A stretch of DNA of 40,494 nt from a virus (IMGVR_UViG_3300045988_104813); one strand, 5' to 3'; counted from the stretch's first letter, positions 2,134 to 38,722 are shown. Translations and numbers: made by a program. Notes: generated by a model not told the origin, from the letters alone.

Positions 2134-2610
2134 ATGAACATATACGAAATAGACAATGCAATGTTTTCTTTAATTGACGAAGAAACAGGCGAAATAAAGG
2201 ATTACGAGGCATTTGAAGAACTACAAATGCAGAGAGAAGAAAAAATCGAAAATACAGCGTTATGGTATAAAAATCTTGTAGCCGAGAGCAAAGCTATAAG
2301 AGAAGAAGAAAAAGCACTTGCGGAACGTCGTAAGTCGTTGGAAAACAAGGCTGAAAATCTGAAGAATTTCATAAATCGAACATTGCAAGGTAATAAATTC
2401 GCTACTCCAAAAGTGGCGATAAGTTACAGAAAGTCAACGGCGGTGGAAGTTGATGACGAATTTATCGACTATGCAATGAAGAACAACAGTGACTTACTGA
2501 CATATAAGCAACCTGAGCCGAACAAAGCGGTCATTAAGGAAATGTTGCAGGGCGGTTTTGATATTCCGCACGCAGAGTTGACCGTGAGAAACAACATGAG
2601 TATAAAATAA
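2134..2610 (+). CDS. Siphovirus Gp157-like protein (recombination/replication-module accessory)
   Basis: N-terminal MNIYEIDN..F..L..E and ISYRKS motif recalled from Gp157-family proteins; position just upstream of a Sak4-like ATPase. Confidence 0.45.
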   Translation: MNIYEIDNAMFSLIDEETGEIKDYEAFEELQMQREEKIENTALWYKNLVAESKAIREEEKALAERRKSLENKAENLKNFINRTLQGNKFATPKVAISYRKSTAVEVDDEFIDYAMKNNSDLLTYKQPEPNKAVIKEMLQGGFDIPHAELTVRNNMSIK

Positions 2611-2613
2611 GGA

Positions 2614-3258
2614 GTGATACATATGGGAATACCGGTTTTAATTATGGGCGAAAGCGGTAGCGGAAAAAGTGCAAGTATGAGAAATATGGTACCTGAAAAG
2701 GTAGGTGTATTCAATGTTGCAGGGAAACCATTACCGTTTAAAAATGGCAAAAATTTTAAAACTGCTGACAATCCGTCATACAAAACAATAATGAACAGTT
2801 TGAAAAATGCAAAGCTAAAATGCTATGTGATAGATGACAGTCAATATTTAATGGCATTTGATTTTTTTAACAAATCTAAAGAAGTAGGTTATCAGAAGTT
2901 TACCGAAATAGGATATAACTTTGAGCAACTAATACGAACAGTGCAGACTGATACACCGCACGACTGCATTGTATATTTTCTGCACCATACAGAACAGATG
3001 CCTAACGGAAGTCTTAAGGCGAAAACAATCGGCAAAATGCTTGATGAAAAATTAACGGTTGAGGGATTATTCAGTATTGTTTTGATGTGTGTTGCAGATG
3101 AAAACAAACATGTATTTTTAACACAATCAAACGGAATAAGTACGGCAAAGTCGCCTATGGATATGTTTGATTTAGAGATTGATAATGATTTAAAAATGGT
3201 TGATGAAACAATAAGGGAATATTACGGACTGAATGAGGAGGATAAAAATAATGAATAA
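2614..3258 (+). CDS. Sak4-like RecA-core ATPase (AAA_24-type), putative single-strand annealing/recombination protein
   Basis: Walker A GESGSGKS near the N-terminus; about 214 aa; between Gp157-like and SSB-like genes. Confidence 0.6.
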   Translation: MIHMGIPVLIMGESGSGKSASMRNMVPEKVGVFNVAGKPLPFKNGKNFKTADNPSYKTIMNSLKNAKLKCYVIDDSQYLMAFDFFNKSKEVGYQKFTEIGYNFEQLIRTVQTDTPHDCIVYFLHHTEQMPNGSLKAKTIGKMLDEKLTVEGLFSIVLMCVADENKHVFLTQSNGISTAKSPMDMFDLEIDNDLKMVDETIREYYGLNEEDKNNE

Positions 3259-3814
3259 AATACAAGGATATGACGAAGCACAATCGTACACAGGTGAGAG
3301 CAGAACATTGCCGGCAGGTAAATATATCTGCGAAATCAAGGGTGCAAAAGAGGTTGAAACCAAAAACGGTAAGAAACAGTTGGTATTGCAACTGGATATT
3401 GCAGAGGGCGAATATAAAGACCATTACAGTAATCTATATGCGGCGAATGCTGAAAGAAACGGAACGAACGCAAAATGGAACAACGGAGGACTTTTCAGAC
3501 AAGGATACGAGGGTAAACAATTACCATTTTTTAAAGGTATGATAAGTTGTATTGAAAAAAGCAATGAGGGCTATGAATGGAATTGGGACGAAAAAACGCT
3601 TAAGGGTAAGAAAATAGGTGTATTGTTTGGACGTGAACAATACCTGATGAACGGTCAAAAAAAATGGGCGACTAAGGCAAGAGCGGTAAGAAGTATCAAA
3701 GGATTGGAAATGTCCGAAATTCCACAGGATAAACTACTTGATGGAAGTACATCGGGATTTGATACAAGCGGATTTGATGATGAGGACGAATCGGAAGAAG
3801 ATTTGCCGTTTTAA
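3251..3814 (+). CDS. Putative ssDNA-binding protein with SSB-like acidic C-terminal tail (…DEDESEEDLPF)
   Basis: Start moved to ATG 3251 (GAGGAGG RBS, 8-nt overlap with upstream stop); acidic tail ending in LPF resembles the SSB C-terminal interaction tip. Confidence 0.5.
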   Translation: MNKIQGYDEAQSYTGESRTLPAGKYICEIKGAKEVETKNGKKQLVLQLDIAEGEYKDHYSNLYAANAERNGTNAKWNNGGLFRQGYEGKQLPFFKGMISCIEKSNEGYEWNWDEKTLKGKKIGVLFGREQYLMNGQKKWATKARAVRSIKGLEMSEIPQDKLLDGSTSGFDTSGFDDEDESEEDLPF

Positions 3815-3827
3815 TATAGGTTAAGGA

Positions 3828-5693
3828 ATGGGTGCTATGGAGAATGAAAACAGAATAACGATACCCGATTTCAGTAAGGACGATTTTTTAATATCATCAA
3901 AACCGTTTCAATGGATAATAGACCAAGCTGACGGCAACGAGTTCATCAAAGGTCAGCTTGTGGCGCAAATGGCGGACAAAGCGAAAGAACTTGATGTATC
4001 AAACTTTCGGACGCAATTCAAAAACTACGTCAGAGCGCAAAAGGGTCAAAGCATTGTTTACGGCAACGTAATGGAGTTCAGTGGCACTGCAATAATGTGG
4101 GATACAGGCGAATGGATAGCAACTGATGACGGAGTGTATAGGTTTAAAGGACAGTTCAGCGAAAAAGTGACGGCGTGTCCACACCCGATATTTATGATAA
4201 CAAGATATTCAAATGTAGATACTGATGTTGAAAGTGTGCAACTTGTTTACGGCAGACCGGGACGAAATTACAAAACTAAAATCGTCCCACGTTCTGACCT
4301 TGCAAGTGCGAATAAAATCGTAAAATTAGCTGAATACGGTGTCGGTGTAACATCGGAAAACGCAAAGGCACTTGTACAGTTTTTAAGTGATTTTGAAAGT
4401 ATAAATTACGACAAAATAATCGAAAAGAAATCGTGCGATCATATGGGTTGGGTAGGCAGAGGATTTAAAGAATTTGCACCGTATATATCAGATTTGGAGT
4501 TTGAGGGACAGGACAGTTTCAGACAGTTATTTAATTCGGTAAGAGAGGTCGGCAGTTATGAAAAATGGCTTAAAACAATCAGAGATTACCGCAAAAACGG
4601 TAATATAGTTGTTCGCATGGTTATGGCGGCGAGTTTTGCGAGTGTACTGTTAAAACCGCTTGGAGCATTGCCGTTCTTCGTTCACCTATGGGGCGATACA
4701 GAAACGGGTAAATCGGTTGCGCTACTTGCGGCAGTGTCTGTATGGGCTGAGCCGGTTATCGGTAAATATGCCTATACATTCAATTCTACTGATGTAGGTA
4801 ATGAATTATATGCGGCGTGTTTAAATTCACTGCCGTTATGTATGGACGAATTGCAGATACTGAATAAACGTTCGGATTTTGATGATATAATATATCGTCT
4901 GTGCGAGGGTACAGGACGTTTACGCGGTAAAAAAGATGGTGGTATACAAAATATTAAGACGTGGCGAAATTGTATTATAACCACAGGCGAACGCCCGATA
5001 ACGTCAATGTCTTCCGGTGGCGGTGCGGTCAATCGTGTTATTGAAATAGAATGTAACGGCGGTAAGTTCTTCAAAAATCCGAGAGAATTTTGCAGAACGA
5101 TACAGTCAAGCTATGGTCACGCAGGCAAAGTATTTGTTGAGAATTTGACCGAAAATCTTGCAGAGGCAAGAGAATTACACGAAAAATACATAAAGCTGTT
5201 AGAGGACAATACGGACGCCACAGACAAACAAATTGCGTCAGCGGCGGCATTATTAACCGCTGATGAACTGTCTGAACGTTGGATATTTAATGACGGTATA
5301 AGAATAGGCATAGATGATATTAAGCCATATTTACAGACAAAGGATATGCTGAACGTCAACAGACGTGCCTATGACTATTTGCGTGAAGAAGTTATTTCTA
5401 ACTATAACAATTTTAAAAACAATGATAACGAGTGTTGGGGAATTGCTAAAGAAGGTTATATATATATTTTGCGAAACAAATTCAATGCAATATTGCAAAG
5501 CGGAAATTTCAATCCACAATCGACGCTTTCGTGGATGGCGAGAAACGGTAAGCTTGCAAAAACAGACGGTCGCAATCTTTCTGTTAAAGTGCAGATAAAC
5601 GGTACAAGAATACGTTGTATTTGCTTGCACGAAGATGATGGAGAGTTTACAGAAATGGATATTGATGATGAAGATTTGCCATTTGATATTTAA
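3828..5693 (+). CDS. Large replication protein: P-loop NTPase/helicase-like (Walker A GDTETGKS; DUF927/VirE/D5-like class) with an acidic C-terminal tail (…DIDDEDLPFDI)
   Basis: Track ORF, 621 aa; Walker A read directly; followed immediately by an iteron/AT-rich region. Confidence 0.55.
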   Translation: MGAMENENRITIPDFSKDDFLISSKPFQWIIDQADGNEFIKGQLVAQMADKAKELDVSNFRTQFKNYVRAQKGQSIVYGNVMEFSGTAIMWDTGEWIATDDGVYRFKGQFSEKVTACPHPIFMITRYSNVDTDVESVQLVYGRPGRNYKTKIVPRSDLASANKIVKLAEYGVGVTSENAKALVQFLSDFESINYDKIIEKKSCDHMGWVGRGFKEFAPYISDLEFEGQDSFRQLFNSVREVGSYEKWLKTIRDYRKNGNIVVRMVMAASFASVLLKPLGALPFFVHLWGDTETGKSVALLAAVSVWAEPVIGKYAYTFNSTDVGNELYAACLNSLPLCMDELQILNKRSDFDDIIYRLCEGTGRLRGKKDGGIQNIKTWRNCIITTGERPITSMSSGGGAVNRVIEIECNGGKFFKNPREFCRTIQSSYGHAGKVFVENLTENLAEARELHEKYIKLLEDNTDATDKQIASAAALLTADELSERWIFNDGIRIGIDDIKPYLQTKDMLNVNRRAYDYLREEVISNYNNFKNNDNECWGIAKEGYIYILRNKFNAILQSGNFNPQSTLSWMARNGKLAKTDGRNLSVKVQINGTRIRCICLHEDDGEFTEMDIDDEDLPFDI

Positions 5694-5922
5694 AATAACC
5701 GCCCTAACTGCCCTACAAAACCGACGTAAAACAATATGTGTATATTATAGAATATTTTTTTGAATTATTTATAATTAATAATTTTTATAAAAATAAAAAA
5801 GTATAAAAATGTGTAGGGCGGTAGGGCATTGGATAAAAAAATGTGTAATAATGCGGTCTAAAATATGCCCGACATTAAATTTTTGAAATTAGGGCAATAG
5901 GGCATATATAAGGAGTTAAACA
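5694..5922. promoter_or_regulatory. Candidate replication origin: three paired GCCCTA/TAGGGC iterons flanking a roughly 75-bp AT-rich stretch
   Basis: Iteron pairs at about 5701-5715 (+), 5814-5827 (-), 5890-5903 (-); AT-rich 5733-5810; directly downstream of the helicase-like gene. Confidence 0.5.
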
Positions 5923-7173
5923 ATGAAATTATTTGATTATCAAGAAAAAGCACTTGCATTAACGAGTGATAAAGACAATTCGGCATTTTACTATGATATG
6001 GGTTTAGGTAAGACATTTATAGGCAGTGAACGAATGCGATTATACGGTGAACGTGTGAATGTAGTCGTGTGTCAGAAGTCTAAAATCAAGGATTGGTACG
6101 AACATTTCAAAGAACATTATACAGATTATGCGGTATTTGATTTGACGAACAAAAAAGATATGCAGGCATTTATGACATATCCGATATACAAATGTATCGG
6201 TATTATAAATTACGAACTGGCATACAGACGTGAAGAATTAAAACAATTAACGAATTTTACAATGATGTTAGATGAAAGTTCGATGATTAAGAATGAAACT
6301 GCAAAACGTACGAAGTTTATACTTTCACTGAAACCGTCACATACAATATTGTTATCCGGTACACCGACAGACGGCAAGTATGAGTTCCTGTATTCGCAAT
6401 TACGCTTGTTAGGTTGGAAGATTACCAAAACGGCATATTATAACCGATACATAAAAACGGAATTGCGAAGTTACGGCGGTCCAATGTTCAGAGTAGTTAC
6501 AGGATACAAGAATGTAAGCGAATTAAAGGCAAAACTAAAGGAATACGGAGTGGTATTTGCTAAGGCAGAAGAAGTTATTAAGTTACCTGAAAAGAAGTTT
6601 ATCAAGGAATATTCGACTGTTTCATCAGACTATAAAAAGTTTATGAAAGACCGAGTAATCAAGATAGACGATAAGGAATTGACAGGCGACAGTACATTGT
6701 CAAAAAGACTGTATGCAAGAATGTTATGCAGTGCATATAGCAAAGACAAAATATCGCGATTAATTGATTTAGTTAATTCTACATCTGACAGGGTTATTAT
6801 ATTCTACAATTTCAATACCGAACTTGAAGCATTAAGAAAAGTGCTGTTTGATAGACCAATAAGCATAGTAAACGGACAAGTTAAGGACCTAAAGGAATAC
6901 GAAAATAACGATAATTCAGTTACATTGATACAATATCAAGCCGGAGCTATGGGATTAAATTTGCAAAAGGCGAACAGAATTATATATTTTTCTCTGCCGG
7001 AACGTTCGGAACTGTTTGAGCAATCAAAAGCGAGGATATGCCGTATCGGTCAAGAAAAACAATGCTATTATCACATAATGATGTGTCATAAGAGCGTGGA
7101 AGAAAAGATATATGAGTGTCTGTTAATGCGAAAAGATTATACAGACGAATTATTCAGAAAGGAATTTGGCTGA
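5923..7173 (+). CDS. SNF2/DEAD-like superfamily II helicase
   Basis: Motif I YDMGLGKT, motif III LLSGTP; classic phage partner of VRR-NUC. Confidence 0.8.
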   Translation: MKLFDYQEKALALTSDKDNSAFYYDMGLGKTFIGSERMRLYGERVNVVVCQKSKIKDWYEHFKEHYTDYAVFDLTNKKDMQAFMTYPIYKCIGIINYELAYRREELKQLTNFTMMLDESSMIKNETAKRTKFILSLKPSHTILLSGTPTDGKYEFLYSQLRLLGWKITKTAYYNRYIKTELRSYGGPMFRVVTGYKNVSELKAKLKEYGVVFAKAEEVIKLPEKKFIKEYSTVSSDYKKFMKDRVIKIDDKELTGDSTLSKRLYARMLCSAYSKDKISRLIDLVNSTSDRVIIFYNFNTELEALRKVLFDRPISIVNGQVKDLKEYENNDNSVTLIQYQAGAMGLNLQKANRIIYFSLPERSELFEQSKARICRIGQEKQCYYHIMMCHKSVEEKIYECLLMRKDYTDELFRKEFG

Positions 7174-7469
7174 TGGCAGAGGAAAAGAATTTTGAAAACC
7201 GAGTTAAGCAATGGCTTAGAAGTAAAGGCTGTTATGTGGTTAAATATTATGGTTGCGGAGGTACAAGAGCGGGCGTTCCTGATTTAATTGTATGTGCAAA
7301 TGGTAGATTTATCGGTGTTGAAATTAAAGCTGAACACGGTAAGCTTGCACCGCTACAACGTAGTCATTTAGATAAAATATTAACTTCCGGCGGTGCGGTA
7401 GCAGTGATTAGACCGTCAGAATTTGACGGGTTTAAGAAATTCATTGAGGAAGTGTTGAATGATGATTGA
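7173..7469 (+). CDS. VRR-NUC domain nuclease (PD-(D/E)xK)
   Basis: GVPDLIV…GVEIK motif; start moved to ATG 7173 overlapping the helicase stop (TGATG); AAAGGAA RBS. Confidence 0.75.
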   Translation: MAEEKNFENRVKQWLRSKGCYVVKYYGCGGTRAGVPDLIVCANGRFIGVEIKAEHGKLAPLQRSHLDKILTSGGAVAVIRPSEFDGFKKFIEEVLNDD

Positions 7470-36690: not shown

Positions 36691-36720
36691 ATAGGTGGCT
36701 ACGTGCCACCTATTTTTTAT
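36691..36720. terminator. Bidirectional terminator ATAGGTGGC-acgt-GCCACCTAT flanked by A-tract and T-tract between endolysin (+) and integrase (-)
   Basis: Read directly. Confidence 0.75.
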
Positions 36721-37748
36721 TTGTTTTCGTTTATGCGGTTTATTGCGTCAATACCTGCATAGTACAAATTAGTTGCATATGTATGACGGAATATATGTGG
36801 TGTAACGTCTTTTGCGATTAATCGTATAGCCGTGTCCGAACGTGAAAACTCGTCACCGCCTGCGGCAACATTCATCTTATCTAATATATTATACCAAAAA
36901 CGACGAAACGATGATTTTGTCATAGGTTCACCGCTTTTCATTGTAAATAAATATATATTTTTTGCGTGTGCAATATATTCTTGCAATTCTGACAATAGTT
37001 TTGCCGGAAGAGGAATGGAGCGGTTGCCTGCGTTTGTTTTAGGCGAATTTTTTAGGTGACTTTCACCGTCCTTTATCACCAAATTTTTGTTTATGATTAA
37101 TCTGCGATTTTTAAAATCAATATCTTTGACGGTCAAAGCCAGTGCTTCACCGCGTCTTACACCAGTGTAATATAGTAGATCTACAAATACACGTTCACGC
37201 TGTGTCAGTTTTGCTTTTTCAAAAATTGCTTTCTCTTCGTTCGATAATGACCGCTTTTCTTTCTTTTGTGATTGCGGTAATGAAACTTTCAACGAAACGT
37301 CCTTGTAGATGTATTCGTTTATTATCGCTTGTTGGATAATCTGTTTTATCGTCAGTCTAACGATTTCAGCAGTTCGGTAATGACCGACACTGATAATGTC
37401 ATTTAACATTTCTTGAATATGATGTGACTTCAACGCACTTAAACGAATACCGCCTATTTCGGGTATAATGTGCGAATTTAGGGCGTTTAAATACATTGCA
37501 TAGGTGTTATACTCTTTCGCTGATTTGTACAGCTTTAGCCACTTTATTCCCCATTGCTCTACGGTCATACCCTCATCATTGATAATGATGCCTTTATTTT
37601 GCAGGCTCTTGAACTCGGCGACCTTTTTGTCCAGTTCCATAATTGTACGACCGTACAGTGTTTTACGTTTCGGTTTGCCGTCGTCTGTATATCCAACAAT
37701 CGTACTTGTTGCATAACGTCCGTCGGGACGTTTTTTATATTTAGCCAT
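36717..37748 (-). CDS. int: Tyrosine recombinase / phage integrase
   Basis: C-terminal HIFRHTYATNLYYAG (R…H..R…Y catalytic pattern); start moved to MAKYKK (AGGAG RBS). Confidence 0.9.
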   Translation of the reverse strand: MAKYKKRPDGRYATSTIVGYTDDGKPKRKTLYGRTIMELDKKVAEFKSLQNKGIIINDEGMTVEQWGIKWLKLYKSAKEYNTYAMYLNALNSHIIPEIGGIRLSALKSHHIQEMLNDIISVGHYRTAEIVRLTIKQIIQQAIINEYIYKDVSLKVSLPQSQKKEKRSLSNEEKAIFEKAKLTQRERVFVDLLYYTGVRRGEALALTVKDIDFKNRRLIINKNLVIKDGESHLKNSPKTNAGNRSIPLPAKLLSELQEYIAHAKNIYLFTMKSGEPMTKSSFRRFWYNILDKMNVAAGGDEFSRSDTAIRLIAKDVTPHIFRHTYATNLYYAGIDAINRINENK

Positions 37749-37847
37749 AAATAACACTCCTTTTTCGTTTTTTTGTATTGAAAATAGAGTGCATTTGTGT
37801 TACAATATCATTGGTATGGGATATTGTGTATAAATGCACTTTATTCT

Positions 37848-37973: not shown

Positions 37974-38696
37974 TTAGAATGTTTCTTCGCAAATACCCAA
38001 AACTTTACCGCAACATTCGTTTCTGATATATTCATTAATGATTATATCGGAATATTTTTCATTATGTGAAATTAATCTGTCAACACCTAATTCCTTAACA
38101 TATGCGTTACCGTCCACAACAAATATCCCGATTTCACCGATTTCAATACTTGGCTGTTCTTTGACGAATAACTTATCGCCGTTGTGATATGTCGGCTCCA
38201 TACTGTCACCCGATACACGAACAATGAAATCTGTTCCCTTTGGCGGTTGTTCTGTTAGGTCAACCTTTTCAGGATATTCTTCGTCCAACGGGTTGCCTGT
38301 TCCTGCCGATACGGGCATATCGTAATAAGGTACTTGGTATTTTTTTATTGGTATGATGTTATCGTAATTTGGTTCGTTTGGAATATTACGTTCTAACTCT
38401 TTTCTTATAACCACTTGAACAACTTCTTTACTGTGGTCATCAAGTTTTCTGTAATCGGATACTAATTTTTTTTCTACCGCTGAATAATTTTTTAAGTTAG
38501 AATTGTCATCAAAATCTTCGAGAGTACATTCTAAGGCTCTTGCGATAGCTTTTATAGTATCTATTTGAGGGTCTTTAGTCACTCCCGATAATATTTTTTT
38601 TAAGGTACTTATCGGAACACCAGATTTTTGCGATAACGTTTCTATTTTCATTTTTTTTGATTTGCGAATTTCTGATATTTTTGTTCCTATACTCAT
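37974..38696 (-). CDS. CI-like repressor: N-terminal XRE HTH plus C-terminal S24 LexA-like autopeptidase
   Basis: HTH KIETLSQKSGVPISTLKKIL; SGDSMEP…K peptidase motif; divergent from the cro-like gene; start moved to ATG 38696. Confidence 0.85.
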   Translation of the reverse strand: MSIGTKISEIRKSKKMKIETLSQKSGVPISTLKKILSGVTKDPQIDTIKAIARALECTLEDFDDNSNLKNYSAVEKKLVSDYRKLDDHSKEVVQVVIRKELERNIPNEPNYDNIIPIKKYQVPYYDMPVSAGTGNPLDEEYPEKVDLTEQPPKGTDFIVRVSGDSMEPTYHNGDKLFVKEQPSIEIGEIGIFVVDGNAYVKELGVDRLISHNEKYSDIIINEYIRNECCGKVLGICEETF

Positions 38697-38722
38697 AACA
38701 TTCAAACCTCCTTTTCAAAATC

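Follow-up and report, generated by a model that had tools for sequence, protein, structure and literature searches.

We analysed a 40,494-nucleotide stretch of viral DNA (IMGVR_UViG_3300045988_104813; the window below means this whole stretch), and found that its DUF927 helicase, encoded at 3828-5693, carries a disordered acidic C-terminal tail resembling that of proteins which bind single-stranded DNA (SSB proteins), among them the SSB-like protein encoded just upstream at 3251-3814. We propose that the helicase tail is a copy of the SSB docking peptide which would recruit proteins of the host SSB interactome to the phage origin or fork, and we put the probability of this reading at about 0.58. 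The proposal draws on domain identities, disorder, origin architecture, tail conservation, association with the cognate SSB and a match to chromosomal SSBs, all of which were seen in the analysis. An earlier note, made from the sequence alone, had described four open reading frames (ORFs) in 2134-5693, with acidic tails on the SSB and the helicase, and translation reproduced them. It had also named profile searches as a possible refutation; these searches placed the proteins in the families it had predicted.

An initiator-helicase and an SSB-like protein with similar tails

The helicase gene (3828-5693, + strand) encodes 621 aa with a DUF927 AAA+ core (PF06048; 1.2e-40, 140.5 bits against a cut-off of 22.6, residues 108-377) and a C-terminal winged helix of the Cch type (PF18662, HTH_56; 2.6e-18, 66.5 bits against a cut-off of 26.2, residues 510-603), as the earlier note had expected for a DUF927-like protein. 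It matches phrog_8841 (1.4e-149), and the domain search showed no primase domain. The sole solved relatives by sequence are Rep of Staphylococcus aureus pathogenicity islands (SaPI; 8tch, 4.5e-21) and Cch of the staphylococcal cassette chromosome mec (SCCmec; 5dgk, 4.2e-14). Walker A (G289-K295, with G289, G294 and K295) and Walker B (D340/E341) were invariant in 39 homologues. By its sequence, the protein is predicted to be a self-loading initiator-helicase of the SaPI Rep/SCCmec Cch type. By analogy with 8tch and 5dgk, it would form a hexamer, unwind in the 3'->5' direction and bind iterons specifically.

The AlphaFold2 (AF2) model of the helicase has a mean predicted local distance difference test (pLDDT) score of 84.5 and is folded to about residue 601, where the winged helix ends. 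The remaining residues 602-621 (5631-5690, + strand; …EDDGEFTEMDIDDEDLPFDI) form the acidic tail, in which residues 607-618 score below 50. The LPF of the tail lies at 5676-5684 and is followed by two further residues, so that the protein ends …DIDDEDLPFDI and the Phe is not terminal (F619, then D620 and I621).

The SSB-like protein (3251-3814, + strand, with an alternative upstream start at 3233) has 187 aa from 3251 or 193 aa from 3233, and its C-terminus is …SGFDDEDESEEDLPF; the start at 3251 is preferred because homologues begin MNK…. A DUF669-like oligonucleotide/oligosaccharide-binding (OB) fold had been anticipated for it, and the profile and structure searches agree. DUF669 (PF05037) matched a partial stretch, residues 16-67, at 23.8 bits against a cut-off of 21, and SSB PHROGs matched as well (phrog_18107, 1.8e-44; phrog_378, SSB, 1.7e-6). 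The AF2 model (mean pLDDT 84.5) shows an OB fold, with PrgE of pCF10 (8s4s, E 2e-6) and Bacillus subtilis SsbA (6bhx, 4e-3) as its best Foldseek matches, while searching PDB sequences with a profile of the SSB returned nothing significant. From its fold and PHROG annotation, the protein is predicted to bind single-stranded DNA (ssDNA). Its residues 167-187 (3749-3811, + strand) form a disordered acidic tail (pLDDT <50), of which the tip EEDLPF occupies 3794-3811; the sequence ends …DESEEDLPF with a terminal Phe. Tips of the form DLPF, LPFM or LPFN are kept across 120 homologues of the SSB.

When the window tails (GFDDEDESEEDLPF, the end of the SSB, and EFTEMDIDDEDLPF) are anchored on LPF, they share F at -12 and the final five residues EDLPF. 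The earlier note had both proteins ending in an SSB-type tip: this holds strictly for the SSB, whereas in the helicase DI follows the Phe. At the DNA level, the two tails are identical at 25/42 nucleotides, and a recent duplication of tail-coding DNA was rejected because the identity is only this high.

Specificity and conservation of the tails

The two strands of the window together hold 189 ORFs of 50 aa or more, and the SSB and the helicase are the only ones that have an acidic tail with [LIVM]PF within the last eight residues. Across an initial set of 106 related loci, 99/102 SSB ORFs and 76/86 helicase ORFs had the motif, as did none of 3939 other ORFs, and when the set was enlarged to 192 loci, the sole further carriers were 29 classical-type SSBs.

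The helicase tail is kept in homologues from 95% down to <40% identity, with the tips DLPFDI, DLPFNI, DLPFP, DLPFD, DLPF and YPF between 95% and about 42% identity, and most of 120 helicase homologues end in an acidic xPF followed by 0-2 residues. An exhaustive search returned 9197 relatives; in the best 150 clusters at 50% identity, 41 end in xPF plus 0-2 residues (about 27%) and 13 in xP[WYLIM]. Beyond the conserved Cys597, the median tail of the family is 22 aa long, the median net charge is -4, and in 70% of tails the charge is -3 or lower. The helicase tail is a disordered extension under selection. Position profiles of 128 helicase tails and 136 SSB tails are alike, and 63% of the helicases and 93% of the SSBs have an aromatic residue 11-14 positions upstream of the Phe.

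A single origin of the Pro-Phe (PF) tip was rejected, as parsimony on a neighbour-joining (NJ) tree of 109 representatives needed 21 changes, where the random mean was 26; the tip is therefore very labile, or the NJ tree is unresolved. One clade of helicase homologues of about 904 aa (P0058, P0096, P0101-P0104, P0108-P0111, P0120) has an N-terminal NrS-1-type prim-pol helix-bundle domain (PF22763) and ends just past the conserved Cys (…CVCILYNLE), without an acidic tail. This clade suggested that the tail occurs only where no primase is fused. The idea was rejected, since the PF tip was present in 3/14 long and 38/136 standard-length proteins and since the primase-fused helicases of FP_Epona (…DDLPF) and THSA-485A (…ETPPF) carry it.

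A third type of protein with such a tail is encoded immediately 5' of primase-fused DUF927 helicases: FP_Epona gp21 (L292:2029-2898, phrog_23155) ends …DKDKDLPFV, and its counterpart in THSA-485A (L293:2499-3236, 245 aa) ends …KIDEENIPF. The docking peptide may therefore be present on more phage proteins than the SSB and the helicase.

Helicase tails follow the tails of co-encoded SSBs

Helicases on viral contigs were paired with the SSB encoded just upstream and grouped at 85% identity, which left 49 clusters of helicases. In related phages, the type of helicase tail follows that of the SSB encoded alongside. Where the SSB has a PF tip, so does the helicase in 25/32 clusters, against 3/11 clusters with a non-PF SSB (P-value = 0.004, Fisher test, without phylogenetic correction). 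SSBs with one residue after the Phe (PF+1; …EELPFM/N) pair with PF+1 helicases (…ELPFD/E/N) in 16/16 clusters, one of which (L068) falls outside the main clade. With a shift of the SSB tip to …DADAPxxW, the LPF of the helicase is lost too, and …LPW+n SSBs pair with …LL[PD] helicases at three places in the tree.

Several further tail dialects were observed (L130-L135, L149, L151, L161, L166, L152; L058, L107-L112), in which SSBs ending …DLPWVMN, …KLPWD or …EFPWK occur with helicases ending …ELLP or …ELID, and SSBs ending …TDADAPxxW with helicases ending …EIKWQ or …EINF. The idea that SSB and helicase strictly covary in how many residues follow the Phe was rejected, as it holds only in part, the SSB/helicase pairs being PF+0/PF+1 in L207, PF+0/PF+2 in the window and mixed in FP_Epona.

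The same tail on chromosomal SSBs

In a metagenome scan, rpsF and/or rpsR adjoined the SSB gene at 36 loci (L270:2195-3227 and 35 others among L211-L290); 31 of these SSBs end in DGFMNIPDGIDEELPFN and the rest in close variants. On the 468-kb contig L270, the Pfam matches were S6 (4.7e-31), SSB (6.4e-30) and S18 (9e-29). This chromosomal tail of gut Clostridia is bipartite, with a conserved DGFMNIPDG followed by an acidic tip in which the Phe is not the last residue.

Cultured phages carry the same tail on both kinds of protein. In Roseburia phage Jekyll, the SSB ends in …DGFMNIPDGIDEELPFN and the DUF927 helicase in …DGFMQISEDEQEELPFK; the helicase tail (…KDGFMQISEDEQEELPFK) is identical to the chromosomal consensus at 10/17 positions, a score of which 3021 background ORFs reach at most 6/17. 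The corresponding ends are …DGFMNIPDNLQEEIPFN (SSB) and …DGFEDVEQEELPFD (helicase) in Anaerostipes AC844P2, and …DGFVNIPDGVIDEEMPFN (a classical SSB in an ERF module) and …DGFESIDETQEKLPFS (helicase) in Ruminococcus gnavus phiRg507T2_3. For the classical SSB, 97/120 homologues have a PF+1 tail. Six of these homologues were looked up, and all lie in prophage modules of ERF, SSB, ERCC4, zinc (Zn)-ribbon and DUF927 genes whose helicases mostly end in …QEELPF(M/K). The bipartite PF+1 tail is thus found on DUF669 SSBs, on classical SSBs of ERF modules and on DUF927 helicases. It also occurs on the SSBs of Butyrivibrio phages Arawn and Bo-Finn and Roseburia phage Shimadzu, which have a replisome organiser and a DnaC-like loader and no DUF927 helicase. 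As judged from the sequences, the chromosomal SSB tail is copied, among phages of the Lachnospiraceae type, by SSBs of two unrelated folds and by DUF927 helicases.

Two candidates for the reader of the tail were rejected. A phage-private PF+1/GFMNIPDG dialect with a phage-encoded reader does not fit the chromosomal SSBs between rpsF and rpsR, which share the tail. Neither Sak4 nor the CHC2 Zn-ribbon protein is likely to be an obligate reader, as helicase PF tails persist without Sak4 (in modules with ERF or with no annealase) and without the Zn-ribbon protein (in the clade of the window). The host is the only factor common to all tail carriers, and host SSB-interacting proteins are therefore the most economical readers. 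The single docking code that the earlier note had proposed for the two proteins gains strong support in that the tails are conserved, their types are associated between helicase and SSB, and both match chromosomal SSB tails. Its pairing of this code with Sak4 stands less well, since tails persist in ERF and no-annealase modules and the host SSB interactome is likelier to be the reader than Sak4 specifically.

A putative replication origin downstream of the helicase gene

Directly after the stop of the helicase gene, a putative replication origin (5694-5910) consists of TAGGGC iterons around an AT-rich stretch. TAGGGC occurs on the - strand at 5701-5706 and 5710-5715 and on the + strand at 5814-5819, 5822-5827, 5890-5895 and 5898-5903, and between the two groups lie about 80 AT-rich bp (5735-5812; maximum AT over 60 bp, 97%). 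Six of the ten TAGGGC copies of the window lie within these 203 bp (5701-5903), where about 0.03 would be expected. Most relatives have repeated hexamers of their own (e.g., CTAACC, GTGGGA, CACACA, GGTTAC and GGTGAA) within 330 bp 3' of the helicase gene. SaPI Reps are self-loading helicases of 3'->5' polarity, whose C-terminal winged helix binds iterons immediately downstream of rep. Because iterons and an AT-rich stretch are laid out here as at SaPI origins, we read 5694-5910 as the putative origin of the phage and the helicase as its likely initiator.

Comparison with known systems

The tails are most like the C-terminal docking peptide of SSB (SSB-Ct), a hub with the tip DDDIPF in Escherichia coli and DDDLPF in Firmicutes. 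They share with it a disordered linker, an acidic run and an [LI]PF tip, and EEDLPF of the window SSB and DEDLPF(DI) of the helicase correspond to its Gram-positive form. Unlike the SSB-Ct, the window peptide is borne by an AAA+ helicase, presumably hexameric, and by a non-classical DUF669 OB-fold protein; the Phe of the helicase is not C-terminal, and there is an extra aromatic anchor about 12 residues upstream. In B. subtilis, the SSB C-terminus recruits PriA, RecQ, RecG, RecJ, RecO, DnaE (the polymerase extending RNA primers) and others. In the core genome of Streptococcus mutans, only three proteins end in LPF, two of which are SSBs.

Phage T7 is the closest functional precedent, in that its replicative helicase gp4 and its SSB gp2.5 both have acidic C-terminal tails. 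Both of these tails end in Phe, and they are interchangeable. The gp4 tails tether the polymerase via basic patches on gp5, and processivity, 17 kb with the intact tail, falls to about 5 kb when 17 residues are deleted; the earlier note's comparison with gp4 and gp2.5 is apt in this respect. The relation is one of functional analogy only. The window helicase is a non-homologous AAA+ DUF927 protein, whereas gp4 is a RecA-type helicase of superfamily 4 with 5'->3' polarity; the T7 tail partner is encoded by the phage itself, whereas the window phage has no polymerase among its scanned proteins and its tail copies a host SSB motif.

Phage HK620 resembles the window in that its Sak4 gene adjoins that of a distant SSB homologue, whose last six residues (NDYPPF) are needed if Sak4 is to bind ssDNA coated with the SSB and if annealing is to be stimulated. 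It differs from the window in that the work on HK620 describes no helicase tail and in its tip, NDYPPF, and tailed helicases also occur without Sak4. SaPI Rep (8tch) and SCCmec Cch (5dgk) share with the window helicase the DUF927 AAA+ core, the C-terminal winged helix and an iteron/AT-rich origin immediately 3', at a sequence similarity of only E 4.5e-21 and 4.2e-14; an SSB-like tail is unmentioned in their descriptions, and the main SaPI Rep paper has 0 occurrences of 'SSB'. The phage protein Bas52_0087 has a disordered C-terminus with the host tip FDDDIPF, proposed as an interface with SSB partners of the host such as SbcB; it is itself SSB-like, whereas the carrier in the window is a helicase.

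Earlier work thus already covers the SSB tail as a hub, the tails of T7, the need of Sak4 for an SSB tail and host-like C-terminal tips on phage SSB-like proteins. For an SSB-type tail on DUF927/Cch/Rep helicases, no description was found in the searchable literature, in agreement with the earlier note, to which such mimicry by the helicase was new for this family.

Proposed mechanism and alternative explanations

In the mechanism that we propose, the helicase would act much as SaPI Rep does: its winged helix would bind the TAGGGC iterons that lie just downstream of the helicase gene, and it would open the AT-rich spacer, load itself and translocate 3'->5'. Its tail is composed of an aromatic anchor, an acidic linker and an [LI]PF tip, as is the peptide on the phage DUF669 SSB, and the six tails of a hexamer would display the docking code that a strand coated with SSB displays. 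Together with the phage-SSB tails on the exposed strands, they could recruit readers of SSB tails, primarily the host SSB interactome, which in Firmicutes includes DnaE, PriA, RecJ, RecO and RecQ/RecG. Such recruitment would supply the missing priming and polymerase functions and link a non-DnaB helicase to the host replisome, and the tail may also permit hand-off or competition with SSB-bound partners, Sak4 included.

Several points weigh against this proposal. Compared with an SSB-Ct defined by a terminal Phe, the window SSB conforms and the helicase, with DI after F619, deviates. The free alpha-carboxylate of the last-residue Phe forms part of the recognition of the E. coli SSB tip. A terminal Phe is not defining in this host group, however, because chromosomal SSBs of gut Clostridia also end …ELPFN. 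Many members of the helicase family have the tips …ELLP, …ELID or …IPY, some of them beside a canonical DIPF SSB, and mimicry is therefore not universal; the match between partners is likewise imperfect where …ELLP helicases adjoin SSBs ending in canonical …DDGDIPF. The association statistics carry no phylogenetic correction, and the SSB and helicase genes are co-inherited. The assignment of the rpsF-ssb-rpsR contigs to gut Clostridial chromosomes is by inferred taxonomy, and the host matching, which was seen in the Lachnospiraceae-type clade, is extrapolated to the window phage with its Oscillospiraceae-like host. The AF2 monomer model, being a monomer, is uninformative on tail partners. Binding by the tail, the identity of its readers and the consequence for replication are what we infer from these sequences.

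A reader within the phage, a DNA mimic and a degradation signal are alternatives, none of which rules out the proposed reading. The first, which we consider unlikely, is a code internal to the phage: a protein of the phage, Sak4 in particular, would read both tails. The helicase would then be handed to Sak4/SSB-coated ssDNA for recombination-dependent replication, or would compete with the SSB for Sak4. The need of HK620 Sak4 for the last six SSB residues, in both binding and annealing stimulation, speaks for such a code, as does the adjacency of the Sak4, SSB and helicase genes in the window and in most DUF669 loci. On the other hand, the helicase xPF tails are kept in ERF and no-annealase modules, and the dialect is shared with SSBs encoded on chromosomes and by phages with unrelated replication modules, which is unexpected of a private code. 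Sak4 may also read the same peptide as the host proteins, in which case this alternative is compatible with recruitment of the host SSB interactome.

There is rather little chance that the tail is an autoregulatory DNA mimic, which would fold onto the winged helix, the central channel or the SSB OB fold and thereby gate origin binding or loading, or displace SSB from ssDNA, as has been proposed for the tails of SSB and T7 gp2.5. Such a role would suit the acidity of the tails, which is general even without a PF tip (net charge of -3 or lower in 70%), and the start of the tail directly after the iteron-binding winged helix; the E. coli SSB tail, moreover, weakly binds its own DNA site (cited in the work on HK620 Sak4). 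Charge alone, however, leaves the [LI]PF tip, the upstream aromatic residue and the match to host SSBs unexplained, and AF2 leaves the tail undocked with pLDDT <50, which is weak evidence.

A degradation signal for ClpXP, by which a C-terminal LPF would mark the helicase and the SSB for turnover and so limit their levels, is very unlikely: the LPF end of SsbA/SsbB suffices for ClpXP degradation in some S. mutans strains, but this recognition is strain-dependent, absent in E. coli and S. gordonii, and requires a terminal LPF or LPY, whereas the window helicase has LPF+2 and chromosomal SSBs LPF+1, and the conserved aromatic and acidic parts would be unneeded. Chance or compositional likeness of two acidic C-termini can practically be dismissed, for although acidic tails are common among DNA-binding proteins and the tail DNA is only 25/42 identical, none of 3939 other ORFs has the motif, thousands of homologues conserve it, and it is associated with the cognate SSB tail.

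The phage and its gene module

The window encodes an integrase (36717-37757, - strand), a CI-like repressor (37974-38705, - strand) and terminase genes from 13075 on, and belongs to a temperate, siphophage-like phage of a gut Clostridia host. The helicase has close homologues named from metagenome-assembled genomes (MAGs) of Hominilimicola, a member of the Oscillospiraceae, and Ruminococcus; the sole genome match was an uncultured Clostridia MAG, and a megablast search of GenBank phages with the module found no match. No primase or polymerase was seen among the scanned window proteins with Pfam and PHROG profiles.

The first gene of the module (2134-2610, + strand; 158 aa) encodes a Gp157-family protein, as earlier described (PF05565, 1e-30, 107.3 bits against a cut-off of 28.6, full length with profile positions 2-162/162); it also matches phrog_253 (5e-26), labelled as Mu Gam-like end protection. 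The next (2614-3258, + strand; 214 aa) encodes a Sak4-like RecA-core ATPase or single-strand annealing protein with the Walker A sequence GESGSGKS. The previous call of this gene is upheld by phrog_2872 ('Sak4-like ssDNA annealing protein'; 3.7e-72, 243 bits over the full length), with Pfam AAA_24 below threshold (21.3 bits against a cut-off of 27). Downstream of the putative origin, the same module contains a SNF2-family helicase (5923-7173, + strand; PF00176, 7.8e-18; PF00271, 6.8e-10; phrog_62) and a VRR-NUC/Hjc-like nuclease (7116-7469, + strand; PF08774, 3.2e-7; phrog_93, 7e-22). Two conserved phage proteins without a Pfam family are encoded immediately 5' of Gp157, at 959-1315 (phrog_997, 'replication terminator', 1.3e-30) and 1336-2037 (phrog_1029, unknown function, 4.6e-66), and may be part of its early module.

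A recurrent prophage module (L196, L198, L200, L201, L204, L207, L194) combines ERF, a classical SSB, an ERCC4 nuclease, a Zn-ribbon protein and a DUF927 helicase; it is the ERF counterpart of the Gp157-Sak4-DUF669 module of the window, and its helicase has the same tail. The Zn-ribbon protein (about 160-200 aa) has a DnaG-type CHC2 domain (PF01807) and a helical C-terminal part, and no catalytic primase domain was detected in it, though it is often annotated as 'DNA primase'. Its gene lies between those of the SSB and the helicase in most related loci (L109:2079-2621, L058:7543-8139, L053:7563-8165), often overlapping the helicase start, and is absent from the window, where the SSB stop is at 3814 and the helicase start at 3828.

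Significance

A conserved, host-matched mimic of the SSB tail offers a concrete adaptor hypothesis for how 3'->5' AAA+ helicases of phages, SaPI and SCCmec-like elements may be connected to a replisome organised by DnaB. Tentatively, and at somewhat less than even odds, we extend it to the MCM-like (minichromosome maintenance) DUF927 helicases of phages and mobile elements in general: these might couple to the replisome by impersonating SSB, the six tails of the hexamer, of the host-lineage type, recruiting host factors for primer extension and restart straight to the phage origin, and the tail serving also as a marker of host range. The SSB-tail code of gut Clostridia, which is bipartite and has no need of a terminal Phe, bears on how the SSB hub is read outside E. 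coli. If the proposal is true, then because the tail follows the SSB dialect of the host, it would be a readable host-range marker in metagenomic phages (e.g., DGFM…EELPFx for Lachnospiraceae-type hosts), and might serve to predict the hosts of uncultured phages.

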